Virus record (IMG/VR): IMGVR_UViG_3300037833_000032
Span: 1-59,671 of that record
Reading direction: 5' to 3' (one strand)
Length of the DNA: 59,671 nucleotides
From: a virus
Lineage: Duplodnaviria; Caudoviricetes
In this document: piece by piece, positions 7,217 to 41,488 of the stretch
How the letters are laid out: each line of letters starts with the position of its first letter
Numbering within the stretch: position 1 is the stretch's first letter
The notes under the pieces: generated by a model
What the model was told of the DNA's origin: nothing
What the model saw: the letters and a program-made list of their open reading frames with translations, nothing else
The model's database searches: none
Position numbers and translations under genes: made by a program

Positions 7217-7277
7217 ACCCGATGATTGCGCCGGAAGCGAAGCTTCACGTAGGAATTGTCAATGTCAGATTCATATA

Positions 7278-7655: not shown

Positions 7656-7710
7656 ATCATAAGGGCAACAGTAAAGCTCCATTTCTGCCATTTAATAATT
7701 TCAACCTGCT

Positions 7711-8187
7711 ATGTTAAAAATGTACCCAACTGAGGCACAGAATTCAGTTTACACAAAGAAATTAAATATTGTCCGTTCTATTTCTTCAGTATCCTTAAAT
7801 AAGGAATATTGGGAACCTACAATCACAAATTCACAAAAGCTATTTGTAGCAACCAATAATTACATACAATCCTGTGTCAGCGTTTTGTTGGAAGTTCCTA
7901 TTTCTTCTATCCGCAATTCAAAAAAGTTAGTGGCTGCTTGTAATGCGAGAATGGTTTGTTGGTACATTCTTAAACAACGTTCCGGAATGTCCATACGGCA
8001 AATTGCTCACCTGTATCAAGCGAATGTAAGTATGGTACACCGCAAAATTAAGCTCATGAGCTTTTATTATGAAAGAGGAATTTACCCGGAGTACAATATG
8101 ATCATTGACTTAACCAATGTGGCACTGGATGAAAAAGTAATGCTATCCTATTATGAAAAACAAGTACAACAAAACGAGCAAGCCTGA
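7711..8187 (+). CDS. DnaA C-terminal (domain IV)-like HTH protein
   Basis: ARMVCWYILKQRSGMSIRQIAHLY..NVSMVHRKI resembles the Bac_DnaA_C pattern. Confidence 0.6.
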   Translation: MLKMYPTEAQNSVYTKKLNIVRSISSVSLNKEYWEPTITNSQKLFVATNNYIQSCVSVLLEVPISSIRNSKKLVAACNARMVCWYILKQRSGMSIRQIAHLYQANVSMVHRKIKLMSFYYERGIYPEYNMIIDLTNVALDEKVMLSYYEKQVQQNEQA

Positions 8188-9325: not shown

Positions 9326-9339
9326 TGCATTTAATGTAA

Positions 9340-18618: not shown

Positions 18619-18649
18619 TAAATATTACTAACTCTGGCAAGGTAAGAAA

Positions 18650-19191
18650 CTCACCATGTGTGTACTCCTGGAGAACTTCAGAGGTGGCTTAGTTTTCTTA
18701 GAAGATGTAAATAAATACATATCCAACTTTGAGAGAGAAGAAATAAAAGGAGCTTTTAAGGCAATCCGGCACCAGAGCCAGGATATTATAATGCACATGC
18801 AATCCCTTTCACCGCTTCGTCCTATACATTTTGAAGCGGCAAGTGTAATCCGGATGCATTATGATGGATTTGATGTGGCAAAAATCAAAGACCAGCTTGA
18901 AAATAATTATGCTTTCCTGAAAATAACTCAATTGATTTGTGAAAGAGAGTATTTGAACAGTAATTCCAGGTTTTTTGTTATGTTCAACTAAAGAAGATGC
19001 ACATTAAAGGAATCTCAGCTAGCCAATTCAATAGAGCTTGTTTTCACTTCTTGACTTCGCATAGACAATAATTTAGTGACTTAGCTTCTACGATTGCTTA
19101 CCAGAATAGACGTAATGCACCTTATCGTCAGGGTAATGAATTAGCTATGCGTGAATGGGTAAATAGAAATTCTTACATGTTTGTTCCTTAA
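18650..19191 (+). pseudogene. 5'-truncated, frameshifted second copy of the packaging ATPase 3' half
   Basis: First 243 bp nearly identical to 9664-9906. The rest is a diverged homolog (..IKGISASQFNRACFHFLTSHRQ*..AMREWVNRNSYMF) with a 1-nt loss in the T-run near 18975 and an in-frame stop. Confidence 0.9.
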
Positions 19192-24526: not shown

Positions 24527-24679
24527 ATGTCAAACTGGAAAGAAATCGCCATTTCATTGGCAGTCGTGATAGTTGGAGTAGTGGTAGCTACCGTGCTGTA
24601 TAAGCAAGCAGAAAAGCTAGGTACAAAAAGCTCTAACCAAGACCACGCAGAAGTAACTTTTACAGGCAAAGCTGCATAA
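24527..24679 (+). CDS. 50-aa membrane protein (not in ORF track)
   Basis: MSNWKEIAISLAVVIVGVVVATVLYKQAEK..; immediately upstream of the capsid candidate. Confidence 0.7.
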   Translation: MSNWKEIAISLAVVIVGVVVATVLYKQAEKLGTKSSNQDHAEVTFTGKAA

Positions 24680-24708
24680 GGGACAATCTTTAAAAATTCT
24701 TAAACAAC

Positions 24709-25410
24709 GTGAAAAAGAATCCTTTCATCAACAAATTGCAAATGGAAGCTGAAAAAGCCTGGAATAATTATTCCGGTGGCGCTTCTGGTGGTAAAAGAGA
24801 CGAATTCGTTAGCATGACTGGCGGACGTTTGTCTCACATGGATGGCTCAGTACAACAAAGTGGTATCAAAACAATCACTTTTGATATCATTAACACTGAT
24901 GAAACATCTGATTTAGCTGCTGTATTATTCGGAGCTAATGAAGGTTTTGTAAATCCTTTTAATGGCGTAAAATGCTCAATAACTGGTAACACTGCTGCTG
25001 CCGGAAAGGGTATCGTAGTAACTCCCAAACGTTACTCTTTAACAGAGTTAGCTGAAAAGAGCAAAACTGAACCTTTCACTTTTATTGGTTATCGCTATGA
25101 CTTCGGAGATGAACTACAGTTGAAACAAGACTGGCATCTACGCAGAAAAGAAGGTACTGCAATTACTGATGATCTGCATAGCCCAAGCGAAATGAGAAAT
25201 TTAAGCAACAACATTGCTACAGCCATGGATAATGCTGAATTCTTCATGCGTGTTGATGCCAAAGGTGCGCTGTTCATCACATTAGCTAAAGCTCCTTCCT
25301 CTTCAGTTGCTCGTAAAATCCAAGTGATTTTCAAAGTAGGAACCGAGGTAGATTTAGGCAATGTATTGAAAGGTCAACCTGTATTGGTTCAAAACGGAAT
25401 GGGCTTCTAA
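24709..25410 (+). CDS. Candidate major capsid/structural protein (beta-rich, possible single jelly roll)
   Basis: Soluble, Gly-rich N-arm, alternating beta-strand patterns (KTITFDIIN, FTFIGYRY, FFMRVD, LFITLA, KIQVIFKV); first large gene of the operon, followed by a terminator. The fold is inferred. Confidence 0.45.
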   Translation: MKKNPFINKLQMEAEKAWNNYSGGASGGKRDEFVSMTGGRLSHMDGSVQQSGIKTITFDIINTDETSDLAAVLFGANEGFVNPFNGVKCSITGNTAAAGKGIVVTPKRYSLTELAEKSKTEPFTFIGYRYDFGDELQLKQDWHLRRKEGTAITDDLHSPSEMRNLSNNIATAMDNAEFFMRVDAKGALFITLAKAPSSSVARKIQVIFKVGTEVDLGNVLKGQPVLVQNGMGF

Positions 25411-25478
25411 TATTTGAATCGTTTGGGATAGAGTTTCTCATAATTTCTTTATTCCAAACTTTTCTCTTTGTGAATAAG

Positions 25479-25540
25479 GCCACTGCCACGAAGCATATTC
25501 TATGCATAGTAGAAGCTCCGCTATTGGCAGTGGCTTTTTT
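25479..25540 (+). terminator. Terminator/attenuator-like stem after the capsid candidate
   Basis: GCCACTGCCA..TGGCAGTGGC plus TTTTTT, with inner GCATA/TATGC stem. Confidence 0.65.
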
Positions 25541-25568
25541 AATGCACTTCTACTTACACATTCTCACA

Positions 25569-25961
25569 ATGCAGACAATTAGAGTAGAGCCAAAAACTGA
25601 TATAGAAAGCATACTGGATTATATCATAGAACGGAATAGGGAAGGAGTAAAAAAAGTATTGCTACTCAATGGATATTCAAGATTTACAACAATCCGGGAT
25701 ATGCAACTGGCATTACTGGAGCTTGTAAAATCCGATGAGAGAGCAATATCTCAGCTTGTAGCCGAACATCCGGATTATGAGCTAATCGTTGCTGATTACC
25801 TGGATAAGAATCCTGCTAGTGAACCAAAAGTAGTGAAAGCCAAAAAGAAAAAGGCTAAAGCTCAATTGCCCACAATTGATATAGACTTTTCAGTAATGGT
25901 TCAATTACTCATGTTCCTTGTGTCTGTGTGGTTAGTACTCAAAATTTTCAATAAGGACTAA
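25569..25961 (+). CDS. C-terminally anchored membrane protein (start moved from 25470)
   Basis: C-terminal TM VMVQLLMFLVSVWLVLKIF; the upstream extension overlaps the terminator. Confidence 0.7.
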   Translation: MQTIRVEPKTDIESILDYIIERNREGVKKVLLLNGYSRFTTIRDMQLALLELVKSDERAISQLVAEHPDYELIVADYLDKNPASEPKVVKAKKKKAKAQLPTIDIDFSVMVQLLMFLVSVWLVLKIFNKD

Positions 25962-26284
25962 TGGACACAACAATCTTCTCAAAGGCTCCAAAAAAGACAC
26001 ATTCCAACTTTGCGCTAGGTGCTGCCCTGACTAACCTTGGTGGTTCAGGCTTAACTGATGTTCTGGCCAATGCTTGTTTTGGAGATGCTAAATGCCAGGA
26101 AAACCGGGCATTAACTACTCAGGCAAATCTGACAAATGCCCAGGCTAATCTTGCTGCAACTCAGGTTGCTGCTATTCACGCTCAAAATGCAGGTAAGCGA
26201 AGTGAAATTCTCATGTACGTGGGTATTGCCTTTGCTTTGGTGGTAATGACTTTAGGAGCAATCTTTTTACTCAAAAAATCATAA
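25961..26284 (+). CDS. C-terminally anchored membrane protein
   Basis: TM ILMYVGIAFALVVMTLGAIFLL-KKS. Confidence 0.75.
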   Translation: MDTTIFSKAPKKTHSNFALGAALTNLGGSGLTDVLANACFGDAKCQENRALTTQANLTNAQANLAATQVAAIHAQNAGKRSEILMYVGIAFALVVMTLGAIFLLKKS

Positions 26285-26289
26285 TACCG

Positions 26290-27084
26290 ATGAAAAATAA
26301 ATTTAATCAAATGGTTGGCTTAGTGGGCTTTTCAGGTGGTGTAAATGGCCAAACTTCTAATGCTATTGGAAGTTTTGGAACTACCTCATTACTTGGCCAG
26401 TTAGCTGCTACTACTTCTGCAAGTTCCGGAGGTAGTACTTCTATTTCAACCTTGTCTACTAAACTATCCCAATTGCAGTCAGAAAGAACGCAACTGGCTC
26501 AAAAGATAGTAGCCTGTGAACAGGAAATAGCCAGACTTGCTTCTGTTCGTGGGGATTGTAAAAGGACTATTGGTTGGAATAATGGCTGTTTAGATAATAA
26601 CACAGCTTTATCTAATCAACAACAATCCTTAATTACAACCTACAAAAACCGGATAACTGCTATTGATGCTGAAATCCCCAAAATTCAGTCAGAGATAGCT
26701 GCCGCACAGAAAGCACAACAAGATGCTGCTGCTGCTACTGCAAAGTTAGAACAGGAACGTCTTGCTGCTGAAGCACTGGCCGCACAACAAAAAGCTGCTG
26801 CTGAAGCTGCTGCTGCCAAAGCCAAAGCAGAAGCCGAAGCATTGAGATTACAAGCAGAAGCCGAAAGGTTAAAACAGGAAGCTGCCGCAAATCCGGAAGT
26901 AGCTGCTATTCGTGCGGAAGCTGAAATTAAGCAAGCTCAGGCTACTGCTGCTGCCCAGGCTGCAACTCAGGTTGCTGCAACGGAAGCTGCCAGTGAGAAA
27001 TCTCAAACAATGATTTATGTAGGAGCCGGAATTGCTGCCCTGGTGATCATAGTGGTAGCAGTAATTTACGTCTTTAAAAAATAA
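26290..27084 (+). CDS. Ala-rich coiled-coil protein with C-terminal TM anchor
   Basis: Long A/E/K/Q coil, Cys residues, TM IYVGAGIAALVIIVVAVIYVF-KK. Confidence 0.8.
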   Translation: MKNKFNQMVGLVGFSGGVNGQTSNAIGSFGTTSLLGQLAATTSASSGGSTSISTLSTKLSQLQSERTQLAQKIVACEQEIARLASVRGDCKRTIGWNNGCLDNNTALSNQQQSLITTYKNRITAIDAEIPKIQSEIAAAQKAQQDAAAATAKLEQERLAAEALAAQQKAAAEAAAAKAKAEAEALRLQAEAERLKQEAAANPEVAAIRAEAEIKQAQATAAAQAATQVAATEAASEKSQTMIYVGAGIAALVIIVVAVIYVFKK

Positions 27085-27089
27085 GCTCT

Positions 27090-27542
27090 ATGCTAAATCC
27101 AAACGAAGCAAAGGCTATTTGCGCTCAAAACGAAAACCCTTTTGTAGAAAATAAGCCATACAATCCCGATGTGATACTGTCTCATGTTATCACTCATTTA
27201 ATGGATGGCTTTGCTCCTGCACCAGGGGACAAAGAAAAAGCTGATTTAGCCAAGCAATTATACATAGCTGCTATTCAGACTTTACATGAATCCGATATGC
27301 CTGTTATTGAGCAATCCATTGTAAAAATGAGAGATGCTATTATAGAAAAGGTACTTCCAAGTGAAGTTGCTACTTCCAAAGAAGATACCCAGGCAATAGA
27401 GGAAGCTCCTTGTTATGCGGCTGATCTGAAAGAATCAGTACGCTTTAATGTGGCCGGAAAGTCCATGACTGTAAAAAAGCAGTGGATTCAATGGGCTGTA
27501 ATTGCAATTCTCATTCTCTTACTTATTAAACTTTTTAGATAA
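27090..27542 (+). CDS. C-terminally anchored membrane protein
   Basis: TM WAVIAILILLLIKLFR. Confidence 0.75.
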   Translation: MLNPNEAKAICAQNENPFVENKPYNPDVILSHVITHLMDGFAPAPGDKEKADLAKQLYIAAIQTLHESDMPVIEQSIVKMRDAIIEKVLPSEVATSKEDTQAIEEAPCYAADLKESVRFNVAGKSMTVKKQWIQWAVIAILILLLIKLFR

Positions 27543-27973
27543 TGTGCAACTGTGCAGGTGTTCAATTTAGCAATTGCGTAGGGAATCCCGACTGCAATTG
27601 CCATAAAGCTGAGTTTAACCAAATGATTGGTATAAACGGTTTCTCAGGTGGTACTTCTAATGCTACCGGAGAAATACAGACTTTAGCCGTTCCTGGGGTA
27701 CAAGTGCAAACGACTATCCCAACTATTAAGGTAACAGCTCCTTCTACTACTCCAACTACTACTACCACTACCAAAGATTCAACACTTAACAAAGTGCTTG
27801 ACCTGGGTACGTCTGTATTAGGCTTGTTCGGTAAAAAATCAACTCCTACAACCAGTGCTCCAGTGCCACTTCCTGAAGAGGAAAAGACTGTTCCTACTGC
27901 TGTATGGATTGTAGTAGGTGGTATTCTGCTACTGGTGGTTGCATTTGTCATAGTTAAAGCTGCTAAAAAGTAA
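27542..27973 (+). CDS. Cys-rich N-terminus, Thr/Pro-rich, C-terminally anchored membrane protein
   Basis: MCNC..NC..DCNC, poly-Thr linker, TM AVWIVVGGILLLVVAFVIV-KAAKK. Confidence 0.78.
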   Translation: MCNCAGVQFSNCVGNPDCNCHKAEFNQMIGINGFSGGTSNATGEIQTLAVPGVQVQTTIPTIKVTAPSTTPTTTTTTKDSTLNKVLDLGTSVLGLFGKKSTPTTSAPVPLPEEEKTVPTAVWIVVGGILLLVVAFVIVKAAKK

Positions 27974-27974
27974 G

Positions 27975-28121
27975 ATGAGTAAGAAATATATAATTGCTCT
28001 TATCTGCCTTGTAGTTGGCTATATCATTGGTGATTATGATGCCTTTCACTTTGCAAGGCATCATAATGTACCTAAAACAAGTGGCTTGTTCAGGTTCAAA
28101 CCCAAATCAACGGAAGCATGA
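27975..28121 (+). CDS. 48-aa membrane protein (not in ORF track)
   Basis: MSKKYIIALICLVVGYIIGDYDAFHFARHHNVPKTSGLF..; ATGA overlap with the next gene. Confidence 0.72.
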   Translation: MSKKYIIALICLVVGYIIGDYDAFHFARHHNVPKTSGLFRFKPKSTEA

Positions 28122-28240
28122 AATTAGTATTTATCGCTGTGGCTTGCCTGTTAGCCGGGTTTATTACCGCTGACTTTTTAGCTGCTGAATCGGCTAAAAA
28201 TAACGGAGTACCTAAAAATGGGGGGCTTTTCACCAACTAA
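28118..28240 (+). CDS. 40-aa membrane protein, paralog of the preceding gene (not in ORF track)
   Basis: MKLVFIAVACLLAGFITADFLAAESAKNNGVPKNGGLFTN; TAATG overlap with the next gene. Confidence 0.72.
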   Translation: MKLVFIAVACLLAGFITADFLAAESAKNNGVPKNGGLFTN

Positions 28241-29007
28241 TGAAAAAGCTCAATATCAAATCAAATAATCCGGTAATGGTGCATGTACAAATACTTGCAT
28301 CCGGAAATGCAGTACTCGCTATTCGTGGCTATGAGAAAGGTAAGGCCAATACTACCTATGTAGACCGCAAATATGGAACTGTTCAAAGTCCGGTATCTGG
28401 AAAGATTGATTTGAAATTGCCAATGCCTGACCGATTTGAAAAGCTAGGTATAACAGTTACGAATGTGCTTAACTCTTCTCCAGTGAAGATTGTAAGCCTT
28501 ACTCACTCACAATTACAGCAATCCGCTTTGCAGGTTAGACAACTAACCAAGGACTATATAAAGTTCGCAGCGGATTTTGCTAAAAAATGTGGCCATATAC
28601 CTACTGACAAGTACCAAAGTAAGGATGGCAAGTTTCAGATACACTTGCTAGATCAAATCCGGGACCATGAGACAGGTAAAGTAATTCCTACTCCTGCCAG
28701 AGTAAATCACATGACAGGGATCATAGAAGTTAGCAAAAAGGACTTTGCAAAAATGACTGTAGCTAACAGGCTCTATATACTCATGCATGAGTTCGCCCAC
28801 TTTGCCAACAACACAGACGACGAAGTTGAGTGTGATATGCTTGCCGCAAAGACTTGTATGGAACTTGGCTATAGTGCTATTGAGTGCTTGTATGCAGTTT
28901 CTAAGCTGTTTTTATATAACAACGAAGCTCATCCAACACTGAAAGCAGAACAGGAAAAGAGGGTAAAGAAAGTAAAAGATTTTATCAACCAGTTTGGGAT
29001 TAAATAA
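28240..29007 (+). CDS. Zincin-like metallopeptidase with N-terminal beta domain
   Basis: YILMHEFAHF followed by DEVECD (HEXXH plus E). Confidence 0.72.
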   Translation: MKKLNIKSNNPVMVHVQILASGNAVLAIRGYEKGKANTTYVDRKYGTVQSPVSGKIDLKLPMPDRFEKLGITVTNVLNSSPVKIVSLTHSQLQQSALQVRQLTKDYIKFAADFAKKCGHIPTDKYQSKDGKFQIHLLDQIRDHETGKVIPTPARVNHMTGIIEVSKKDFAKMTVANRLYILMHEFAHFANNTDDEVECDMLAAKTCMELGYSAIECLYAVSKLFLYNNEAHPTLKAEQEKRVKKVKDFINQFGIK

Positions 29008-29451
29008 ATGTGTTTTTCAACAAAAGTAGCTCCAGAAGATATAGTTCCAAGCAAAGAAGCTAGTGCTTCTGAGTGGATTCTATGGCATAAGGCTCTAAAA
29101 TCTGCTAACCTGGGTAAAGGTTCAGCAAATATGCTATGGCTCAAAGCATGGAGATTAAGAGGTTGCGCAGGTATTGGTTGTGATGCTAATACACCTGAGT
29201 TAAGAGAGTATGTCGAATCACAAGGCTTTACTGTCAATGGGGGAGTTCTGGACTTTGTGCCGGACACATTAGACAATATAGGTGATTTTACCTCTAAAGC
29301 CTTTAATCTGAGTTTTTACACAATTGTAGCTATTGTCGTGATTATGGTTGCTTTTCTAGGCTTGCTTGCCTGGAATGTTGGTAGAAATCCACAAATGATA
29401 ATAGATGCAGGTAAGGCTTATGCAGGAGCCAGAACAGGAGGGAAGCTATGA
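29008..29451 (+). CDS. Membrane protein
   Basis: TM YTIVAIVVIMVAFLGLLAW. Confidence 0.72.
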   Translation: MCFSTKVAPEDIVPSKEASASEWILWHKALKSANLGKGSANMLWLKAWRLRGCAGIGCDANTPELREYVESQGFTVNGGVLDFVPDTLDNIGDFTSKAFNLSFYTIVAIVVIMVAFLGLLAWNVGRNPQMIIDAGKAYAGARTGGKL

Positions 29452-29879
29452 AAGCTTTAGCACAAAACTGGCTAGTTATTCTCCTGTTTGTAGTCATTCT
29501 CTTTATTGGTGCTGTCATTTACGGCAAGATCAACAAAGCCAAGAAAGAGGAACAAATCAGACGTATCAATGAAATACTTGATAAAGGAATTGGTGTAGAT
29601 GGGATAGACATAAAAAGTATTACTCTCAATACTAAGGCAGATACTTCTTACAATGCCTTATCCGATGTAAACATACTTTATAAGTCTAATGGCTTCTTAA
29701 TTGATGATGAAGAAGCCATTTATAACGTATTTACCGGAAAGACCAAAGCACAGATAGCACAAATTTACCAGACCTTCCTTTCTACCTACAAGCAGGATTT
29801 AGACGAGTTTCTAAAAAGTTTCCTTAATCTAAAGACTGAGTACCCAAATGTCATACGCTTAGTTAATCAAGCTGCATGA
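29448..29879 (+). CDS. N-anchored protein with one annexin-like repeat
   Basis: DVNILYKSNGFLIDDEEAIYNVFTGKTKAQIAQIYQTFLSTYKQDLDEFLKS follows the annexin repeat pattern. Confidence 0.62.
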   Translation: MKALAQNWLVILLFVVILFIGAVIYGKINKAKKEEQIRRINEILDKGIGVDGIDIKSITLNTKADTSYNALSDVNILYKSNGFLIDDEEAIYNVFTGKTKAQIAQIYQTFLSTYKQDLDEFLKSFLNLKTEYPNVIRLVNQAA

Positions 29880-29911
29880 ACCTTAAATGGACCTAAAATC
29901 AAGATTTTATC

Positions 29912-30373
29912 TTGATGTCCAGATTAAATCTTAAATCCATGAATAAGTTTTTCATCAAACATAAAAGAGTAGTTATCATTCTGCTAATCGCAGTGATAAT
30001 AATTGGAGTTGCCTATTACTTCACACTTGGCAAAGACCTGTTCGCCCAAAATCGCAACAAAAATAGCGAAGGTTCTTTACCTGAGGATGGAAGTAATAGC
30101 AATTCAATTCCAAGTAGTAGCAGTAGCAATTTAAGTTTCCCCTTAAAATGGGGAATTAAGAATTCAAATACAACTAGGCTTCAACAAAGGCTCAATATAT
30201 CAATTACTACTTGCAAAAAAGGTAGTACCATATCAGAAGATGGCATTTTGGGCGAACAGACCGTTGCGGCTATTAAGTCTTTCTTTCCAAATATCGGAAC
30301 CTCTGTAGCCACTAACAGGCAAGTAAGCCAACTGGAATACTCAAACATTATTAATTCAAAACCAGGCTGTTAA
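29912..30373 (+). CDS. N-anchored peptidoglycan-binding (PG_binding_1-like) protein
   Basis: TM, then FPLKWG..TTRLQQRLN..EDGILGEQTVAAIK. Confidence 0.75.
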   Translation: MMSRLNLKSMNKFFIKHKRVVIILLIAVIIIGVAYYFTLGKDLFAQNRNKNSEGSLPEDGSNSNSIPSSSSSNLSFPLKWGIKNSNTTRLQQRLNISITTCKKGSTISEDGILGEQTVAAIKSFFPNIGTSVATNRQVSQLEYSNIINSKPGC

Positions 30374-30378
30374 CTCGA

Positions 30379-30702
30379 ATGCCAAAGAAAAAAAAGATAG
30401 TACTGATATTAGCAGTATTGCTTGTGTTCGGTGCAGGAGTTGGTTTTTACTTCTACAATAAAAAGAAACAAGTGGAACAGGAGCCAGAAGCAACTCCTGA
30501 GAGCAAAGGCATATTGCCAGGTACTCCTTTAACAATGGAATCACAAGTACAGGCTTTATACCGGGAATTGCTAGGGAGAGAAGCCGATACATCCAGATTA
30601 GCTTATTGGACTGCCCAGGCCAATACATCCTCAATTGAAAATGTGAGAAATCAATTTATGGCTTCTCCTGAGTACAAAGCAAGAATATCAAAAGTAGCCT
30701 AA
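30379..30702 (+). CDS. N-anchored DUF4214-like protein
   Basis: VQALYRELLGREADTSRLAYW..VRNQFMASPEY. Confidence 0.72.
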   Translation: MPKKKKIVLILAVLLVFGAGVGFYFYNKKKQVEQEPEATPESKGILPGTPLTMESQVQALYRELLGREADTSRLAYWTAQANTSSIENVRNQFMASPEYKARISKVA

Positions 30703-30704
30703 CC

Positions 30705-31148
30705 ATGAAATTGCCAAAATTGAATGGATCTTTTTTGATCCAAAAGAAACAATGGTTTATAGCAGGTGCAATACTGCTTTTATTACTCGCTGTAGGTATC
30801 TACTTCTATTTGGATTACCGCAAAAAAAAGAAAGCTCATGCAAGTACTGAAGGGGATGCATCAGTAATACCTCTTATTCCGGATAATGCCAACCTTTTCA
30901 AAGACTGTCCCAATGATTCATTTCCATTGAAATATGGAAAATGCGGAAAGCGTATTGAGCAATTTCAAATGTATCTACTAAAACAGTATGGCGCTCAGTT
31001 TTCAGCATACGGCATAGATGGCAAATGGGGAGACGAGACAGAAGTACTGGCTAACAAATTCATTACTAAAAATGCTCCTTTCTCAATCAGTGAGGACTAT
31101 TTCAATAAGACTGGAATGGGGGGCTATAAAACAGTTAAATACGCTTAA
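30705..31148 (+). CDS. N-anchored peptidoglycan-binding (PG_binding_1-like) protein
   Basis: TM, then FPLKYGKCGKRIEQFQMYL..GIDGKWGDETE. Confidence 0.72.
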   Translation: MKLPKLNGSFLIQKKQWFIAGAILLLLLAVGIYFYLDYRKKKKAHASTEGDASVIPLIPDNANLFKDCPNDSFPLKYGKCGKRIEQFQMYLLKQYGAQFSAYGIDGKWGDETEVLANKFITKNAPFSISEDYFNKTGMGGYKTVKYA

Positions 31149-31169
31149 TTCAATCCTTTAACTAGCAAT

Positions 31170-31337
31170 ATGGAATCATTAAATACATTTTTTCAAGACT
31201 ATCAACAAAACGGGATACGGGTTTCGGTAGAAGTTCCAGATAAGGACTTAATGAAATTATTCGCATTTGCAGTAGGTACGGCCATTTGTGTAATCCTGGC
31301 AGTACAGTTAATCAAAGGCATATTCGATAAGTCATAA
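31170..31337 (+). CDS. 55-aa membrane protein (not in ORF track)
   Basis: MESLNTFF..LFAFAVGTAICVILAVQLIKGIFDKS. Confidence 0.65.
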   Translation: MESLNTFFQDYQQNGIRVSVEVPDKDLMKLFAFAVGTAICVILAVQLIKGIFDKS

Positions 31338-31355
31338 AGAAAGGAGATCTACAAA

Positions 31356-31610
31356 ATGAGTTGGACTAAATTAAAAATGGTGGATATGGTAGATGGCCAG
31401 GAAATCGAATTTCCTTGTGGGGTGAAAACAATAACAGTTACTCCAAAGGAGCCTTCCGGAAGTTATGACTTAACTTATGCTGATGGTAGTGGTTGTTTTG
31501 GCTTAAAAATACCCTTCTCCTATGATTATCCACAACCAATAGACAGTCAGAAAGACAACAAATTAAAAGTTGTAGCACATGGCATTGTTCACTTAATCTA
31601 TACAACATAA
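31356..31610 (+). CDS. Small beta-rich protein (possible penton/minor structural protein)
   Basis: 84 aa, preceded by AGGAG, strand-like composition; function is speculative. Confidence 0.55.
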   Translation: MSWTKLKMVDMVDGQEIEFPCGVKTITVTPKEPSGSYDLTYADGSGCFGLKIPFSYDYPQPIDSQKDNKLKVVAHGIVHLIYTT

Positions 31611-31614
31611 CCCT

Positions 31615-32364
31615 ATGAGTAGATTTGGTTCACGTTCCGGAGCTGGCAGTGGAGCCTTTAATGGAAACCGCACAGTAACCAGACCTGGCCTACCCAATGT
31701 AAATGTAGGTGGTGAAAATTTAGAAGAGTGGGCAGACGAATATTTCTTTCCTGCCAGTGCTCCAACACTTGCCGTATCTATTGCTAACAATGTGAGAGAG
31801 AAAGGTACTACTTTTCAACCTACCATTGTGGCCGATTATACGCCAAAATATGCCCTGGTAGTGGCCAGAAGGCTATACCGCAATGGAGCACTGATTACTC
31901 AACCTGCTACGGATGATTTTTCTTATCAGGATATTGTTCTTTCTGCTACCACTATTTACCGGGTACAAATTGACTATACCTTGGAAGGAGTGCCTGGAAC
32001 ACTCTCCAAAGATGTAGGGGTGTATTTCTTTGCACCAACTTATATTTTCCTTGGAGCTTTGAACATGAGTGAAGCACAAATAAAAGCTGCTGCCGGCGTT
32101 TCTGGAAAGCGCATTATTGACAGGCAATCATTATCTGATATATCCTATACAGGCAACAATACGCATCCGGCAATTGCTGAACCTGCAAGCTATAATGGTT
32201 TTTCTACTATCAAAGACCAGAATGGGTTTGTGGTTACTTCTGGCTTTTCTACAAGGCTAGTGGAATTTGCCCTGGCTGATGGCACAACAAAGGAAATGTA
32301 CCGGATTAGAGAGCACGTTGATGAAACATCGGTAAATGGGTTTAAATACAACTTTTTACGTTAG
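31615..32364 (+). CDS. Putative spike/fibre-associated structural protein (Ig-like)
   Basis: Beta-rich, PTLAVSI..REKGT..F and IKDQNGF motifs; position in the operon. Confidence 0.5.
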   Translation: MSRFGSRSGAGSGAFNGNRTVTRPGLPNVNVGGENLEEWADEYFFPASAPTLAVSIANNVREKGTTFQPTIVADYTPKYALVVARRLYRNGALITQPATDDFSYQDIVLSATTIYRVQIDYTLEGVPGTLSKDVGVYFFAPTYIFLGALNMSEAQIKAAAGVSGKRIIDRQSLSDISYTGNNTHPAIAEPASYNGFSTIKDQNGFVVTSGFSTRLVEFALADGTTKEMYRIREHVDETSVNGFKYNFLR

Positions 32365-34394
32365 TGAAAAGGCTCCTTACAATATCAATTCTCACACTTT
32401 TATTCATATTAATTATGGCAGGTGGTATACCTATTACAATTCCTTTTGAGTTATTAAATGCATCTCCTTTAGATAAACGGTTTTATTCTAACAATGCCAC
32501 GGAGAGAAATAATATAGCTTTTAGATACCGGGGAATGATTCACTACACAAAAGGCGAAGGCTTATATTATGTAGATGACAATTTTGCCTTTCAACCAATG
32601 TCAGAAGTGCTCAAAGAATCTCAAGCATTAAAAGACTGGGTAGAAGCGCAGGTAAATAAATTCTTTATAGACAATCCGGCAGTAATCGAGCAGGCTATTA
32701 CTAATTATTTTTCTGAAAACCCGGTACAGGTTACGCCAGAATTAATTGCTGAAGCTGTTGAAAACTATTTTTCTGAGAATCCTGTGGCTTCTCCTACTGC
32801 TATTGGGCAAGCAGTAAATGAGTATTTAACTGAAAACCCGGTAACTGGTGGTGCTTTGCCGCCAAAGTATACACTTAAAGAGTTGCCGATAACTCTCAAT
32901 CAAACAGATATTTCTTTTGAGTTTCCCTGGTCTAATCCTGAGTTAGTACATACTGGTTCGGTTGTTACTGAAATCTTTCGTTTTACGCCAAATGTGAAAG
33001 TTCGCATTGGTGTAAATAATCCTAATTACTTAAATGGGCCTGGGGGCCAGTACCCTCATCCGGATTATTTAGAATATCTTCCTGGTAATGGGCCAGTGGA
33101 CTTTCTAATGTATCTATCTAATGATGCCATTACGGAGGTACATTTGTATGCAGAATATCAAAGAGAACCAGGAAACTGGCAGTATTTAGCAGATTTGACC
33201 TTTACTTGGCCAGAAGATAAAAATGATACTACGGAAAGAACCATGTCCATACTTTATTATGATTTGGATGGAAATCCGGTAATGCCAGTAGATGAAACTA
33301 CGCTAAAATTCGATTTTGGCCAGGAATTTAATTTAACTCAGGCTCAGCTTGACAGTTATCCGTATCAGTTTGCCATTGTCACCGGGGACACTTTAGATGG
33401 GGAAACCTTGGACAATCCTAACCAACGCAAACGGGCATTATACCGGGCTAATAATGATCTAGTCTTACTGGCCAGTCCCTGGAGAGTAAGAATTATCTTT
33501 AATGAGGGTATTGAAACCAACTTGGAATATATCACTGCTGCTAATGTGAATTTCTTCTCCTACAAAGTAGTTGGAGACCCTAACCCGGATAATACTTTTA
33601 TAGGCCAGTTAATGGGCTTCTTTCAAGAAGGTACCCAACATCCTTGGTCTGTAGTTTCTCAAGATGAATATTCAACCATTGTTCATATTCAAGACCATTT
33701 CCATATAACAGGCTTTGAATTATACCATTGGGATGTTTCCTATACTAGTAAGTGGGATGTAGAAACAGGTAATCAGTTAATAGCCGAACAAGGCAATATC
33801 TATGTAGATGCTGAATATTTTATTCCTGGAGCCAGAGTAAAGGATGAATTAAGACCGCATTTAGTAAATTTTGCTCCACCTTATCTGAGGAACTTGTACC
33901 CTCAAGAATGGGATATGATCGCCAACGAACTGTTTACAGTAGAAACTGGCAATCCCTATGTAATTGAGGACTTACAAGAAGTAGATAGAAAGCTCAATTT
34001 TACTTTTATTGATCTATTTAACCGTAAGAAAATAGAAGTTATTGAAGCTCCAACTTCGCAGCAAGCACAAGATACTGGTTTAAAAGCTATTGCTTACCCT
34101 AGTGGTGGTGATTTGCCAGATCATTCCGGACAAACAAGCATTTTTGAAACCCTAGTAGAATATACCAAGCCATTTGCCGCTATTTCTTTTGATGCAGAAG
34201 ATGGTAGTCAGTCTTTAGGAGTGTATGACTTTTATCAAGATAATAGCTTATATCCTTCCATTATCGAATATTTTATAGATAAAGGTAAGTTACAATTTGA
34301 TATAACTATTCCAGATAGGTATTTCTTCTTTCCTGCTTATTCTCCTCCAGTCAATACTCAGGGGGTGTTTATTGCCCTAATCAAAAATTATTAA
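32364..34394 (+). CDS. Large acidic putative spike/receptor-binding protein
   Basis: PLDKRF..ERNNI..RYRGM head motif, three NYF/L-SENPV repeats, hydrophobic N-terminus. Confidence 0.55.
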   Translation: MKRLLTISILTLLFILIMAGGIPITIPFELLNASPLDKRFYSNNATERNNIAFRYRGMIHYTKGEGLYYVDDNFAFQPMSEVLKESQALKDWVEAQVNKFFIDNPAVIEQAITNYFSENPVQVTPELIAEAVENYFSENPVASPTAIGQAVNEYLTENPVTGGALPPKYTLKELPITLNQTDISFEFPWSNPELVHTGSVVTEIFRFTPNVKVRIGVNNPNYLNGPGGQYPHPDYLEYLPGNGPVDFLMYLSNDAITEVHLYAEYQREPGNWQYLADLTFTWPEDKNDTTERTMSILYYDLDGNPVMPVDETTLKFDFGQEFNLTQAQLDSYPYQFAIVTGDTLDGETLDNPNQRKRALYRANNDLVLLASPWRVRIIFNEGIETNLEYITAANVNFFSYKVVGDPNPDNTFIGQLMGFFQEGTQHPWSVVSQDEYSTIVHIQDHFHITGFELYHWDVSYTSKWDVETGNQLIAEQGNIYVDAEYFIPGARVKDELRPHLVNFAPPYLRNLYPQEWDMIANELFTVETGNPYVIEDLQEVDRKLNFTFIDLFNRKKIEVIEAPTSQQAQDTGLKAIAYPSGGDLPDHSGQTSIFETLVEYTKPFAAISFDAEDGSQSLGVYDFYQDNSLYPSIIEYFIDKGKLQFDITIPDRYFFFPAYSPPVNTQGVFIALIKNY

Positions 34395-34397
34395 GCT

Positions 34398-35090
34398 ATG
34401 GTAAAGTACGAAATACGGGAAATTACGGTAAACTCAGTAATAACTGAGATTCCGGTAACAATAGTGGATGCTGTTCGCAAGCATAGCTTTAATAATCCTT
34501 ATTATGCTTCCATTACTTTTAATGTAGATGCAAATGTGGAGCTATTGAGGGTGAAAATATCAAATCCTGAAAAGCTCTATGGAGATGATAATACACCTGG
34601 TACTCACGCTGGTTTTAAAGACTATTATCCCTGGACATACAAAGATTTCCGGGTATGGATTAATGAGATAGGTCTGGACTTTGAGTTTTTTACCATGGAG
34701 TTCTTTCAGGTAAGACCAGACCAGACCGAAATAAAAGTAGCCCAGTGTGTAATCCATTTTGATACTACTGGAGCTAGTAATGCCACTATTGAGAATCTGA
34801 CCTACTTACCTGCTAATGATAGTACGGCAGAAATAACCTCAAACGTAGCTTCGCATACTACGGATTTTATTCCACTGTTCGCTGTAGCCGTTTCTGGTTC
34901 TGCTTATGACTATTATCAGTTCTACCAGGAAGCTCCAGACAGTGATTTAATGGTAAATATGCTGAACAATGCAGAATCTCAACATTTTGAAGTAGAGATA
35001 CCAGAACGTCTGTTTAAAAAGGAGCCATTGCCATTAGACTTTATTACTGAGGAATGCAAGCTAATAGCTATTGTAAAAAAGACTAGTTAA
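34398..35090 (+). CDS. Protein partly paralogous to the 676-aa neighbour
   Basis: RVKISNPEKLYG..H..F.DY vs RIGVNNPNYLNG..H..Y.EY; FYQE..FEVEIPER..IAIVKK vs FYQD..FDITIPDR..IALIKN. Confidence 0.6.
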   Translation: MVKYEIREITVNSVITEIPVTIVDAVRKHSFNNPYYASITFNVDANVELLRVKISNPEKLYGDDNTPGTHAGFKDYYPWTYKDFRVWINEIGLDFEFFTMEFFQVRPDQTEIKVAQCVIHFDTTGASNATIENLTYLPANDSTAEITSNVASHTTDFIPLFAVAVSGSAYDYYQFYQEAPDSDLMVNMLNNAESQHFEVEIPERLFKKEPLPLDFITEECKLIAIVKKTS

Positions 35091-35100
35091 CCAATGAATT

Positions 35101-35412
35101 GTGCTTTTAATCATCTATACACTTTTGCTATTTCAGCAGGTTCCTTTACCGGATTTTACAGTCAATGAGAAAGCCTTCGAGATTAGTCCAACCAATGTAT
35201 ATGGTTGGCTAATCTACGGGCTACTAGGGTTTATAGCTTATTTAAAGCTAGAGTCTACTCTCAAAAGCTGGACAATAAGGAAAAAGGATAGGTACATAGA
35301 AACGTTGCACCAGAAATTATTAGAATCAGAAAAAACCTCAATTACGGCAGAAGAAGCCGAATTATACAATAAAATTCTTTCTCAAAAAAAAGAAACTGAG
35401 CCAACTCAATGA
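35101..35412 (+). CDS. Holin-like membrane protein
   Basis: Small, TM VYGWLIYGLLGFIAYL, charged C-terminus, at the end of the structural operon. Confidence 0.4.
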   Translation: MLLIIYTLLLFQQVPLPDFTVNEKAFEISPTNVYGWLIYGLLGFIAYLKLESTLKSWTIRKKDRYIETLHQKLLESEKTSITAEEAELYNKILSQKKETEPTQ

Positions 35413-36146
35413 ACCCTGTTATTTACAAAGCTTTATATGTGCTGCAACGCAACCTCTTCTGGGTATTGCTGCTAGGTTTCCTTTTAATGCTATTTGGCTA
35501 TATGAGTACGGTTATTCATAACCAACAAGTACAGCTAGAATTCTCCAAAGCAGTAAATAAAGAGATGGAAAATAAACTCAATGGGGTGTCAACAATCCTA
35601 TCTCAACGGGAAAATGAATTGGGACAGCAAACAACCAAAGTACTAGCCATTAGTGGCGAAAAAGAACAGTTATTCCAACTGATTGAATCTAATGACAAAC
35701 ATTTAGCTGATAGGCTAGAAAAAATGGATGTTAAGCTCAAAGATTTACACTCAATAACTTCTCTTCAGGTAACTACTTCTGGCCAGTTTCAAACTATTAC
35801 TAATGATTCCATAATTGGGAAAATTATCTATAAGTATGTAGGAGATACTCTTAAAAAGGATACTGTTAGACAGACTTTTAAATTAATCAATTATAAGGAA
35901 CCTTCCGGATGGTTTGAAATGAAAGGCTCAATTCATGGTGATACAATGAAGTTCAATCCGGTTTTTTATGAAGAGTTTGATGTACTGCTTCATGAAGAGA
36001 AAAAGCCAAAAAGATACTTTTTAGACTTGTTCCGAAAGAAACAAACTGTAGGTACGGTTTTTTCCAAAAATCCCTATACTAGAACAAATGCGGTAAAAGT
36101 TATCATTCAAAAAAGAGAAAAGAAAGGCTTTTTCTCAATCTTTTAA
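35409..36146 (+). CDS. Spanin-like (N-terminal TM plus coiled coil) protein of the Bacteroidota phage type
   Basis: TM, coiled coil, basic patch KKPKRYFLDLFRKK, SKNPYT. Confidence 0.5.
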   Translation: MNPVIYKALYVLQRNLFWVLLLGFLLMLFGYMSTVIHNQQVQLEFSKAVNKEMENKLNGVSTILSQRENELGQQTTKVLAISGEKEQLFQLIESNDKHLADRLEKMDVKLKDLHSITSLQVTTSGQFQTITNDSIIGKIIYKYVGDTLKKDTVRQTFKLINYKEPSGWFEMKGSIHGDTMKFNPVFYEEFDVLLHEEKKPKRYFLDLFRKKQTVGTVFSKNPYTRTNAVKVIIQKREKKGFFSIF

Positions 36147-36150
36147 TTAA

Positions 36151-36408
36151 TTGGGGCTTATTATGTTATTACTCAAAACTGATTGGCAGTTATTTTCAGA
36201 CAAGAAATTTAATATTATTCGAGATAATGAATTCACAATTATTTCTTCAGATGTGCAAGATTTTCATACAGCTAAAAAAATTCTTCGCTGTAGAGAAATG
36301 TACGAACTTATAGAGCAACTGCTAAAAATTAAACATGCAGGGCAAACTGAAGAATCCATATTAAAAGAAATAGAAATTTTAAAATTAGAAATTGATAAAT
36401 CTCAATGA
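36151..36408 (+). CDS. Hypothetical protein
   Basis: ORF continuing the operon. Confidence 0.5.
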   Translation: MGLIMLLLKTDWQLFSDKKFNIIRDNEFTIISSDVQDFHTAKKILRCREMYELIEQLLKIKHAGQTEESILKEIEILKLEIDKSQ

Positions 36409-37724: not shown

Positions 37725-37732
37725 AAGCACGA

Positions 37733-37871
37733 ATGCACCACATCAGCTTTGTAAAAGCAGGGCTGACGAATATGTTTTCAACTATTTATCAACATTGAAC
37801 AACAGCAAGTAAATGAAGCGACAGAGCTGAACTTCCCTGCCTTCACAAAGCTGTTAACCATTAGTTGCAAT
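37733..37871 (+). repeat. Degenerate attC-like hairpin
   Basis: CAGCTTTGTAAAAGCAGGG..CCCTGCCTTCACAAAGCTG arms (2 mismatches) directly after the stop codon. Confidence 0.55.
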
Positions 37872-38212: not shown

Positions 38213-39373
38213 CTATTTACCTAATACTTTGGTATCTTGGGCTATTTTTTTAGGTTGAACTCTAGCATATACCTTCAATTGCTTTGTAGAGCCATGGCCT
38301 AGCATCCTGGCTACTGTTTCTTCAGGCACACCAGCATTTAACCATTGCATAGCTGCAGTTTTCCTAGCTGTATGTGTGGTAAGCCTTTTATTGAAGTTGA
38401 GTACCTGAGCTATTTCCTTAAGCAGTCTGTTATAGACTTGGTTGGCAAATTTTGGCAAATGACCATTGTATTTAATCAGGATACGTTTTGCCTTAGAAAA
38501 AAATGGTAAAATAGCTGTTTCACCGGATTTATGCCTATTCTTGTAAATCCAATCCATATTGACATCTTTCATCAAATGTTCATCTGGATGAAAGGTTATA
38601 AGATCTATATAGGCGAAGCCTGTATAACATTGAAATAGATAACTATCTGCTGCTTTTTGAAGTGTGTGATTTGCAAAATGGTAATTTTCCATTGCTGTTA
38701 ATTCAACTTCAGTAAGAAAGACTGGTAATTTTGGTTTTTCAAAGCTCACTTCTACATATTCAAGCTGACTAGTAACTATGTACTGCTGTCTAGCTGCATG
38801 TTTGAGTACTTGTTTTACTAATTGAATATGTTTCATGGCATGATTATGAGAGCAAGCTTTTAAAGTTGTTCTCAAATAATGTTCAAAATCATCAGCTAAC
38901 TTTATTGTAAACTCATCAGGCAATAAATCTAATCTGCCAATTGAAGCTAAAAACCTTTCGCAATTCCGGTACTTACTCCAGTTATGCTTAATGGTTCCTG
39001 TTGCTTTTTTTCGGGCTTCTTTTCTAGTAATGAGTTCGGCAAATACTTGAAGGAAGGTTCTTCCAGGTTTAGCCCGTTGCAGGTATTCTAGCTTTAAGAG
39101 TTGTGCAGTTATAGGCTTTTGTCTTCGCAGAAAGTCATTGTAGACTTCTTTTAACCCTGCTCGGATGTTGGTTAGCGTATCATTATCCTCTAATGCTTCT
39201 AAGTCCTTAGATATAATTCTTTGAGCTTTACTATCCCAGCATTCCGGACTTGTTTTTACAAAAGTTGAAAAATCTCCATTTGCTCGTTTGCCATCTACGG
39301 TAATTCTACAATAGATAGTGGCTGATTTTTCTTTGTTGCGCTTGTTCTTTCTTAGCACAAATAGAATTTCCAT
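38213..39373 (-). CDS. Tyrosine integrase (Bacteroidota Arm-DNA-binding + SAM-like + catalytic)
   Basis: IYCRITVDG, CYTGFAYID, R.KS, THTARKT, LGHGSTKQ..VY. Confidence 0.92.
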   Translation of the reverse strand: MEILFVLRKNKRNKEKSATIYCRITVDGKRANGDFSTFVKTSPECWDSKAQRIISKDLEALEDNDTLTNIRAGLKEVYNDFLRRQKPITAQLLKLEYLQRAKPGRTFLQVFAELITRKEARKKATGTIKHNWSKYRNCERFLASIGRLDLLPDEFTIKLADDFEHYLRTTLKACSHNHAMKHIQLVKQVLKHAARQQYIVTSQLEYVEVSFEKPKLPVFLTEVELTAMENYHFANHTLQKAADSYLFQCYTGFAYIDLITFHPDEHLMKDVNMDWIYKNRHKSGETAILPFFSKAKRILIKYNGHLPKFANQVYNRLLKEIAQVLNFNKRLTTHTARKTAAMQWLNAGVPEETVARMLGHGSTKQLKVYARVQPKKIAQDTKVLGK

Positions 39374-39757: not shown

Positions 39758-39787
39758 CGAGTTTGTTCTACTCAATGTGCTGTTTCA

Positions 39788-39803
39788 GTGATCCCGCTGG
39801 GAT
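39788..39803 (-). other. Putative att core resembling a tRNA 3' end, junction between two integrated elements
   Basis: The - strand reads ATCCCAGCGGGATCAC, the layout of T-loop end, T-stem, acceptor stem and discriminator; lies between two divergent integrases. Confidence 0.6.
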
Positions 39804-39960
39804 CATACAACTAATACAACATCAAAATATAAAATACAGTATTTTGACCAATTTGAGGGTTTTAAAATTACCCAGTACTGCAAAATACAACAAAATACTT
39901 TATATCACTTGCCACTTTACTATCCACCTGTTATATTGTTGGATAGTAAACCCTGTTTTT

Positions 39961-41208
39961 ATGGCAAGTACCAAACTCATTTTAAGGCCCGACCTAGTTA
40001 AAAAAGCAAAAGGAAATCCTACAACTATTTATATTGCTTACTGCCATAATGAAAAGACAAAACGCATTAATACCGGCCAGAAAATCTCTTTTGATAACTG
40101 GGACCCAGAAAGAGAAAAAGTAAAAGATACCTATAAAGGGCATACGACTATAAACGCCATTCTAAATCAGGAAAAAGGGAAAGTTGATAAAATCATTGGT
40201 GAAGCGCACTTTAGAAATATTGAGCCTACCTTTGAATACGTAGAGCAGCAGCTAAGCCTTTTAGCAGCACCGGTTACCCCACAAGAGAAGCCGGATTTTT
40301 TCAAACTCTTTGAAGAGTTTATCAAAGAAACGGCTTCATTAAAAGCCCATGGAACAAACAAGCACTACAAGAGTACGTTGAATCATATCCGCAAATTTGT
40401 AAAGGCTAAACGCATTAAAATAAGCCTGGATAGGGTAGGAGTAGACTTTTATTCCAAGTTTGTTAATTACCTGCTTAATGATTTAACCATGAGCAATGGT
40501 ACAGCAAACAACCAGATTAAGAGGCTCAAAGTCTTTCTATCGTATCTATCCGACAAAGGCATATATGAAAATACAGACTATGAGAAATTCAAGTTATTAA
40601 AGCTAACAGAAACTGATATTACCTACCTTACGAAAGAGGAACTGGATACACTTTACCTGTTTGATCTGTCTAAAAATGAACGCTTAGAGCGCGTACGGGA
40701 TCTGCTGGTACTTGCCTCTACTACCGGCCTGCGACATTCAGATTTTTCAGTCATTAGGCCAGAAAACATCAAAGGCGAATACTTGCTGGTACGCACTCAG
40801 AAAACCAAGGACCCGCTAAGGATTCCGCTTAATTCCTATTCCTCTGCTATTCTTCAGAAATATGAAGGCAAAATACCAAAACTGTCTCAACAGAAATTCA
40901 ATGACTATGTAAAGGAAGTAGGCAAAGTATGTGGCATTGATGAACCCACTGAAATTACTAAATACATAGGCTCTAAACGGGTTGAAAAGCGGGTACCCAA
41001 GTATGAACTGCTTTCCTCTCATACAGGCCGCAGAACCTTTGTAACGCAGTCACTGGAACGTGGCATGAATGCCCAGCAGATCATGTCAATAACCGGCCAT
41101 AAGGATGTAAAAACAATGATGAAGTATGTAAAAATTACTGATACGGTAAAGCAGGTTGCTATGAGTAAAGCCTGGAGTGATGCACCCGGGCAAATGAAGG
41201 TAAGCTAA
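39961..41208 (+). CDS. Tyrosine integrase (start moved from 39763)
   Basis: TGLRHSD, TQKT, SHTGRRTF, TGHKD..MMKY; the upstream extension overlaps the att. Confidence 0.93.
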   Translation: MASTKLILRPDLVKKAKGNPTTIYIAYCHNEKTKRINTGQKISFDNWDPEREKVKDTYKGHTTINAILNQEKGKVDKIIGEAHFRNIEPTFEYVEQQLSLLAAPVTPQEKPDFFKLFEEFIKETASLKAHGTNKHYKSTLNHIRKFVKAKRIKISLDRVGVDFYSKFVNYLLNDLTMSNGTANNQIKRLKVFLSYLSDKGIYENTDYEKFKLLKLTETDITYLTKEELDTLYLFDLSKNERLERVRDLLVLASTTGLRHSDFSVIRPENIKGEYLLVRTQKTKDPLRIPLNSYSSAILQKYEGKIPKLSQQKFNDYVKEVGKVCGIDEPTEITKYIGSKRVEKRVPKYELLSSHTGRRTFVTQSLERGMNAQQIMSITGHKDVKTMMKYVKITDTVKQVAMSKAWSDAPGQMKVS

Positions 41209-41217
41209 TTATACAAT

Positions 41218-41481: not shown

Positions 41482-41488
41482 ATACTTT

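Follow-up and report, generated by a model that had tools for sequence, protein, structure and literature searches.

The window analysed here, the 59,671 nucleotides (nt) of an entire IMG/VR 'provirus' record (IMGVR_UViG_3300037833_000032) labelled 97% complete, encodes at 24709..25410 a protein of 233 amino acids (aa) that, on balance, appears to be the major coat protein of temperate viruses of Bacteroidota that are tailless, probably contain a membrane and form a lineage not described before. The gene is real and conserved, and its predicted fold is one jelly roll. It belongs to a layout of ATPase, coat, membrane-protein and integrase genes that is conserved among related elements, and it is from these data that we infer the formation of a shell, the orientation of the jelly roll in it, the membrane and the packaging of the genome.

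Six elements were compared, including the window. L002 and L003 were found via the coat protein, and two others via the ATPase, namely L004, which corresponds to a Cyclobacteriaceae genome (G002), and L005, which is a 69-kilobase (kb) IMG/VR record (G001). The sixth, G041, was found in a coat-profile scan of 401 Bacteroidota genomes, two of which matched, one of them being the seed genome G002.

The coat-candidate gene and its predicted fold

The 233-aa open reading frame (ORF) begins with GTG, and ten homologues (217-238 aa, 50-94% identity) align with its product from residue 1, in such a way that 53 columns are invariant in the alignment with these ten database proteins. The gene and its GTG start are therefore real. 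A profile of the family was further scored against 1.84 billion representative proteins, and 66 representative clusters of 61-350 aa were detected at an expectation value (E) <= 0.001, 21 of them at E <= 1e-30, so that the gene is more than a chance ORF. Neither a signal peptide nor a membrane segment was predicted in the protein. The gene and its immediate flanks are arranged as follows:

24527..24679, plus strand: 50-aa ORF, single-pass membrane protein with one hydrophobic segment, directly 5' of the coat candidate
24709..25410, plus strand: coat candidate, built of a single jelly-roll core (~46-229) preceded by an N-terminal helix (residues 5-21) and a Gly-rich linker
25416..25540, plus strand: two hairpins (25416-25464 and 25476-25537) and a TTTTTT run (25535-25540), from folding and shuffles

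The original prediction, made by a model from the letters of the window and their ORFs, had placed the candidate after a tiny membrane-protein gene and before a strong stem followed by a T-run, and both flanks were recovered. The 50-aa ORF lies upstream, and a homologue with 43% identity is found at the same place in L003. Downstream, the hairpin region folds with -48 kcal/mol (z = -6.15), none of 200 shuffles folding as well, and a simple terminator scanner also marked 25518-25533 plus the T-run. Hairpins and T-run together are probably an intrinsic terminator or an attenuator.

The same prediction had described a Gly-rich arm of roughly 50 aa followed by about 180 aa of beta-rich sequence, had considered this too short for a double jelly roll, and had proposed that the structure of the monomer be predicted. 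The division of the chain was accurate, with 7 Gly within residues 22-50 and a core at ~46-229. With 11 sequences, AlphaFold2 produced a mediocre model, with a predicted local distance difference test (pLDDT) of 65. With 59 sequences, the model is a single beta-sandwich with a pLDDT of 85.7, a predicted template modelling score of 0.76 and 148 residues at pLDDT >= 90, and all five models of this run reach pLDDT >= 83.8. In this better model, residues 1-50 show block pLDDT values of 53-68, with a helix at 5-21, and the beta-rich core (~184 residues) forms one sandwich with block values of 85-97. The predicted model thus has the jelly-roll fold of the coat proteins of tailless viruses with a packaging ATPase of the A32/P9/B204 type (the PRD1-adenovirus lineage, broadly taken), as a single copy predicted with high confidence. 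No family representative is longer than 350 aa, and the six that exceed 270 aa gave no significant match to a second jelly roll. The chain does not show the two jelly rolls per polypeptide that characterize the Tectiviridae, Corticoviridae, Turriviridae and Finnlakeviridae.

The fold of the better model was compared against 48,161 chains. Virion proteins accounted for 21 of the 50 matches listed, and the others were jelly-roll-type sandwiches such as nucleoplasmin-like proteins, Ena pilins, GOLD domains and carbohydrate-binding modules. Coat proteins of the Halopanivirales were not found among these 50 matches, and Foldseek searches of PDB and BFVD gave no match at E <= 0.001.

Neither Pfam nor PHROG scans assigned the 233-aa protein to a family, and a Pfam scan of all 59 aligned members of the coat family gave three single-member chance matches only. 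No PDB sequence matched the family profile at E <= 10. The protein had no match in GenBank phages by tblastn, none in a plasmid search (PLSDB) and no usable match in the ESM Atlas, and pattern scans with the coat alignment detected none in IMG/VR and none in GTDB genomes. The family is in this way invisible to current annotation and nearly absent from the IMG/VR pattern scans, and the alignments from this analysis could seed a profile for its detection.

The ATPase gene and the order of the conserved genes

A packaging ATPase had been alluded to in the original prediction, and a protein that answers to it is encoded in the window by a gene whose homologues in relatives lie directly 5' of the coat gene:

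9340..10212, plus strand: 290-aa P-loop ATPase, probable genome-packaging ATPase (Walker A, Walker B and profile matches)

The protein has an N-terminal Walker A motif (GQMGVGKS, residues 11-18) and a Walker B motif around LVFLED. It matches phrog_2666, 'terminase large subunit', weakly (9.6e-7); its L003 homologue scores above the Pfam cut-offs for DUF87/HerA and for Zot, and PF01935 is present in 5 of the 27 clusters of the ATPase family. When a 24-sequence profile of the family was compared with all PDB sequences, the best two matches were the B204 proteins of STIV and STIV2 (E 6e-4, 22 bits), colinear across Walker A, Walker B and a downstream RH...Q motif, and the next one was an unrelated Ras GTPase (E 0.0047). 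The match to B204 was seen only with this profile, a single sequence and a 3-sequence profile giving generic P-loop matches. Searches of GenBank phages and plasmids by tblastn with the ATPase gave no match, and its identity between elements drops to 29%. By these comparisons the family would be of the packaging-ATPase type of tailless membrane-containing viruses, with support that is modest but specific, and the element would encode near its coat gene an ATPase of the FtsK/HerA superfamily and of the A32/P9/B204 type, at a modest E-value.

In all six elements the coat gene is located 3' of the ATPase gene and on the same strand. The spacer between them measures 0.34-0.45 kb in L002, L003 and G041, 1.4 kb in L004, where it contains three small opposite-strand ORFs, 2.7 kb in G001 and 14.5 kb in the window. 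Homologues of window 6803..10212 are found in L002 and L003 immediately 5' of the small membrane gene and the coat gene, and homologues of window 25470..31610 come next, with their order kept. An opposite-strand tyrosine integrase ends the element in the window, G041 and G002, which are the three copies with enough downstream DNA, as L002 stops too early and L003 covers 10 kb downstream. With the most distant relative, G001, the genes detectably in common are only those of the ATPase, the coat candidate, a peptidase-like protein and one membrane protein of the 147-aa type. A provirus of ~21.7 kb in G041 is bracketed by a direct repeat of 17 nt (at 7681 and 29357 in the joined L013+L014), and the chance expectation for such a repeat between the two stretches searched was estimated at ~0.002.

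The original prediction had also seen only one coat candidate, a statement that stands for five of the six elements, the window among them, and fails for G001. The family profile matched a single ORF each in the window, L002, L003, L004 and G041; the next-best ORF of the window had E = 0.19, and comparison of the coat family with the 249-, 230- and 390-aa proteins of the window by hhalign gave probabilities <1% and no paralogue. The two paralogous and usually adjacent coat genes of the Halopanivirales type were therefore not detected in the window, within the limit that very divergent paralogues could escape profile tests. By contrast, G001 has two coat paralogues near the ATPase, of 246 aa and 233 aa, with 28% identity over ~207 residues (blastp E 1.6e-15), the second of them without the N-terminal arm, and a weak third candidate (E 0.0024). 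The pair is reminiscent of the two coat proteins of P23-77- and SH1-type viruses. Since a single match was found in five elements and two paralogues in G001, the coat family includes one-gene and two-gene states.

Other genes of the element, its cargo and the neighbouring DNA

The small membrane gene and the coat gene head a plus-strand block, 24527..36408, with a guanine-cytosine (GC) content of ~0.40 versus 0.29-0.32 in the leftward DNA. A membrane segment was predicted in 16 of the 23 ORFs of this block, in many of them C-terminal. The other features of the window are:

6803..9325, plus strand: four genes for proteins of 137, 125, 158 and 390 aa, with homologues directly 5' of the ATPase in L002 and L003
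10190..24086, mostly minus strand: ~14-kb low-GC (0.29-0.32) cargo, without counterpart in the spacers of L002, L003 and G041
18646..19183, plus strand: incomplete duplicate of the 3' part of the ATPase gene, with a 111-aa ORF (18656..18991), seen as direct repeats
25470..28240, plus strand: seven small proteins with one predicted membrane segment each, with colinear homologues in L003
28240..29007, plus strand: 255-aa protein with an HEFAH motif and a weak metallopeptidase match (PhageMetallopep, E 0.036)
29008..31337, plus strand: six membrane-anchored proteins, with two weak peptidoglycan-binding matches and one DUF4214
31356..31610, plus strand: 84-aa soluble protein, beta-rich by eye, with an L003 homologue (29% identity)
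31615..35090, plus strand: 249-, 676- and 230-aa proteins, probable spike or receptor-binding set, variable between relatives
35101..36408, plus strand: 103-, 245- and 85-aa proteins (DUF6549, 6.3e-10; phrog_14010, 2.3e-11)
38213..39373, minus strand: tyrosine integrase, right end of the element (Arm-DNA-bind_5, Phage_int_SAM_5, Phage_integrase)
39763..41208, plus strand: integrase of a second element

Two of the four genes that precede the ATPase have homologues likewise placed in L004. The 158-aa protein of this set shows a weak DnaA_C-type helix-turn-helix match in Pfam, and the 390-aa protein is of low complexity in its N-terminal part and hydrophobic, with coiled coil, in its C-terminal part. 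Among the seven small proteins of 25470..28240, five are C-terminally anchored and a 264-aa one is an Ala-rich coiled-coil protein. Homologues of the 255-aa peptidase-like protein were found in L003, L004, G001 and G041, that is, in every relative that reaches so far. The 84-aa protein, without a family match in Pfam and PHROG scans, is possibly a small vertex protein.

The block of 249-, 676- and 230-aa proteins gave no tblastn match in L003, where the equivalent position is occupied by an 853-aa protein with a sub-threshold match to Phage_fiber_rpt (26.3 bits, cut-off 27). The 676-aa gene contains internal 42-nt repeats. The 249-aa protein (31615-32364) is present letter for letter in the ESM Atlas, and its nearest clusters there are unnamed proteins from records mostly labelled Uroviricota (score 0.94, template modelling score 0.74), suggesting a receptor-binding module that the element has in common with tailed phages. 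The 245-aa protein that follows this block carries DUF6549 and an N-terminal membrane segment, and the 103-, 245- and 85-aa set is possibly related to lysis. The integrase homologues of G041 and G002 have the same relative position and orientation as the one in the window. Attachment-site repeats were searched for around the window element (5700-6850 versus 36400-42000), and 11-nt matches only were detected.

The cargo genes are of defence type. They encode a helicase-like protein (787 aa), two proteins of GmrSD type (748 and 564 aa), an HNH protein (242 aa) and one protein of 1663 aa, alongside an ORF of 205 aa. Since the homologues of the ATPase and coat genes adjoin in L002 and L003, the ~14 kb between them in the window are an insertion. 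This spacer looks like a hot spot for cargo, with other inserted genes also in L004 and G001. The direct repeats 9660-9959 / 18646-18945 (94%) and 9986-10198 / 18971-19183 (71%) flank a block at 10.2-18.6 kb. In a search of sequencing runs, the probable source run was the only one with the complete stretch, and no RNA run was listed for it. In this source run, the depth of a 243-nt contig over 9664-9906 is 52.9, about double the ~23 of its neighbours, and one independent contig joins 18863-26000. As the contigs of the run break at the 243-nt repeat, the placement of the 10.2-18.6 kb block rests on the original assembly.

To the right of the element, a second one (39763-57720) has its own integrase, a primase N-domain of the BT4734 type, an AAA_25 helicase and a spanin-like protein, as well as a 1177-aa tape-measure-like protein (50842..54375), with a Terminase_3 large subunit (54672..55994) coming directly after it. 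Neither a portal nor a capsid gene was recognised there; the element is perhaps a remnant of a phage, or else a satellite. Just 3' of its primase-helicase gene, at 46266-46393, there are two 52-nt direct repeats (81%, 76 nt apart), possibly iterons or an origin. The left end of the window (1-6366) encodes a 1143-aa protein open at the window edge, a DUF4007 protein, a class-V aminotransferase (cysteine-desulfurase-like) and a resolvase/invertase, and looks like host or island DNA, so that the label of provirus, 97% complete, covers a composite.

The related elements have particular features of their own. In its compact module G041 encodes an ATPase of 183 aa, a very basic protein of 81 aa and, in a 625-aa ORF, an N-terminal ParB domain. 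G001 is a linear record of 69,028 bp with inverted terminal repeats of 4.66 kb that are 99.7-99.8% identical. It encodes 'polyvalent' giants, a 1673-aa protein with topoisomerase I, ART-PolyVal and NUDIX domains and a 1936-aa Sno-type helicase, together with a restriction-modification enzyme of the MmeI type and a DnaB helicase interrupted by an intein. Upstream of the module in L003 (21-3926) there is a 1301-aa SNF2-type helicase with a LAGLIDADG homing-endonuclease insert, intein-like, followed by an SLT lytic transglycosylase, and giant proteins of a similar kind precede the module in L002 and G001.

Role of the 233-aa protein and comparison with known viruses

In the mechanism that we propose, the jelly-roll core (~46-229) would form the capsomers of an icosahedral shell, and the N-terminal helix and the Gly-rich linker would reach inward to an internal lipid membrane carrying many small anchored proteins, those encoded 3' of the coat gene. 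The ATPase of 9340..10212 would pump the genome into the preformed particle, and the variable 249-, 676- and 230-aa proteins would make up a complex for the vertex and for receptor binding. With the hairpin and T-run behind it, the coat gene could be expressed at a high ratio to the genes downstream. The role of major coat protein is favoured by the proportion of downstream ORFs with a membrane segment (16 of 23), by the B204-like ATPase, by a synteny kept in six of six elements and by the terminator-like structure.

Several points weigh against this role. The size of the elements, from ~21.7 kb (G041) to 69 kb (G001), is wide for one capsid design, and the copy in the window, with ~14 kb of cargo inside the morphogenetic block, may be defective. 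The role itself is read from the genes and a monomer model. Moreover, penton proteins are as frequent as major capsid proteins among the best fold matches, and the fold therefore cannot separate a hexon-type from a vertex role. The 233-aa protein might be a minor virion protein (penton base, like PRD1 P31 or STIV A223, cement or membrane-linking) of the same tailless virus, with an unrecognised major capsid protein that may be among the soluble 84-, 249-, 230- and 390-aa proteins. We consider this unlikely. The coat gene always follows the ATPase gene, is among the four detectably common to G001 and is duplicated there, like the major coat genes of viruses with two of them, whereas the block of 249-, 676- and 230-aa proteins is not conserved even in L003. 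As for the other candidates, the 249-aa protein resembles proteins of records labelled as tailed phages, pointing to a receptor-binding part rather than to the shell, and the 390-aa protein looks, by eye, helical, hydrophobic and of low complexity rather than beta-rich. Nor was an ORF like a double jelly roll seen in G041, where the sequences were inspected by eye only.

Less probable still, and clearly on the unlikely side, is that the elements are not icosahedral viruses at all. They could be pleomorphic or vesicle-type viruses, or non-viral mobile elements, the jelly roll being a nucleoplasmin-like chaperone of DNA or protein, an adhesin or a pilin-like subunit. The 'polyvalent' proteins of G001 are of a kind also found in conjugative elements, its inverted terminal repeats (4.7 kb) would fit as well, and small ATPases like HerA/FtsK and Zot are not confined to icosahedral viruses. 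However, what the ATPase profile matches best in PDB is specifically an NTPase for capsid packaging, the 233-aa protein is devoid of signal peptide and membrane segment, and Pfam scans of the element detected no conjugation family. The spike-like protein of relatives, with its sub-threshold fibre repeat, the lytic transglycosylase and the peptidase-like protein fit a virion. An inovirus-like organization, with the tiny membrane protein as coat and a Zot-like ATPase, was also considered and rejected, as it leaves the conserved jelly roll and the spike-like proteins unexplained. The marine 'Charybdis' elements were likewise rejected, being 4.5-kb elements with different proteins in the available text of their description (bioRxiv 10.1101/2025.08.03.668216).

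The tape-measure-like protein and the Terminase_3 protein within the window, the Uroviricota labels on the relatives of the 249-aa protein and the treatment of the whole 59.7 kb as a single provirus by IMG/VR could lead to taking the 233-aa gene for a tailed prophage's accessory gene or one associated with its tail, a possibility that appears highly improbable to us. Two back-to-back integrases (38213..39373, minus strand, and 39763..41208, plus strand) stand between the 233-aa gene and the terminase region, which has its own primase-helicase and is therefore a separate element. In no relative is the module accompanied by homologues of the tape-measure or terminase genes; G001 has no match to two terminase Pfam families, and no terminase- or portal-like ORF was seen in G041, as judged by ORF size, by eye and by the ParB match of the 625-aa ORF, no family search having been run on its proteins. 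Linked genes for an HK97 capsid, a portal and a large terminase, as in tailed phages, were not found, the portal and HK97 families not having been searched directly.

If the 233-aa protein is indeed the major coat protein, a bolder idea can be put forward, which we hold tentatively and regard as doubtful: that this Bacteroidota lineage builds its whole icosahedral lattice from one perpendicular single jelly-roll protein, G001 representing a duplicated, two-gene state of the same family. To our knowledge, every characterised virus that combines an ATPase of the P9/B204 type with jelly-roll coats builds them from a fused double jelly roll or from two different single ones. The one-gene state would then be the long-postulated start for the capsids with two coat proteins (P23-77/SH1-type) and for those with a double jelly roll (PRD1-type), and the step of gene duplication would have been captured within one living lineage, with genomes that range from ~22 kb, integrated, up to the linear 69 kb of G001 with its terminal repeats of 4.7 kb. 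A lineage with one coat protein and relatives with two would offer a handle on the evolution of capsids and on the scaling of capsid versus genome size over 22-69 kb. No description of such elements was found in open-access literature text; supplementary contig lists (e.g., that of PMC5894146), which lie outside that scope, may bear on them.

Among known tailless viruses, the element is like P23-77 and IN93 of Thermus, SH1, HHIV-2 and HCIV-1 of haloarchaea and the Halopanivirales in its single jelly-roll coat, here predicted, next to an ATPase of the A32/P9/B204 type, and like Halopanivirales-type viruses in its many small membrane proteins, G001 even having two paralogues. An integrase and a temperate lifestyle are found in some P23-77/SH1-type members. 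In the available sections of the ICTV profiles, the P23-77/SH1-type viruses are described with two single-jelly-roll major capsid proteins (MCPs) and an internal membrane, and P23-77, SSIP-1 and IN93 are each described as encoding two MCP types in the accessible part of PMC6356626. Unlike the Halopanivirales, the window and four other elements have one detectable family member, the host belongs to Bacteroidota, and the N-terminal helix and Gly-rich arm are specific to the present coat family.

With PRD1 and the Tectiviridae, PM2 and the Corticoviridae, other Vinavirales, and STIV and the Turriviridae, the element shares the juxtaposition of ATPase and coat genes, with B204 as the best match of its ATPase. 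It also resembles the double jelly-roll tailless phages in a late operon rich in membrane proteins, a spike-like protein and the prophage state, which the text available from PMC9502842 reports for most Vinavirales. It differs from them in one jelly roll per chain, in the larger size of the elements (21.7-69 kb) and in the lack of a sequence match to GenBank phages. With the Finnlakeviridae (FLiP and phiCjT23, of Flavobacterium) it has in common the Bacteroidota host and, presumably, the internal-membrane icosahedral design. FLiP is described, in the portion of PMC5894146 at hand, with a double jelly-roll MCP and a 9-kb single-stranded DNA genome without a packaging ATPase, unlike the present elements, which have the ATPase and a single jelly roll. 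SSIP-1, in turn, appears in the same part of PMC6356626 as a tailless membrane-containing phage with a Bacteroidota-related host, almost no database similarity and two MCP types. Neither the coat candidate nor the ATPase had a tblastn match in the GenBank phage collection, which presumably includes SSIP-1.

The element would work like the viruses of the P23-77/SH1 type and like those of the PRD1/PM2/STIV type, yet it departs from each group in one defining feature, because the window is without two coat paralogues and the chain without two jelly rolls. It would add a group of temperate tailless viruses to Bacteroidota, where, or near which, the known ones (FLiP, phiCjT23 and SSIP-1) are few and different.

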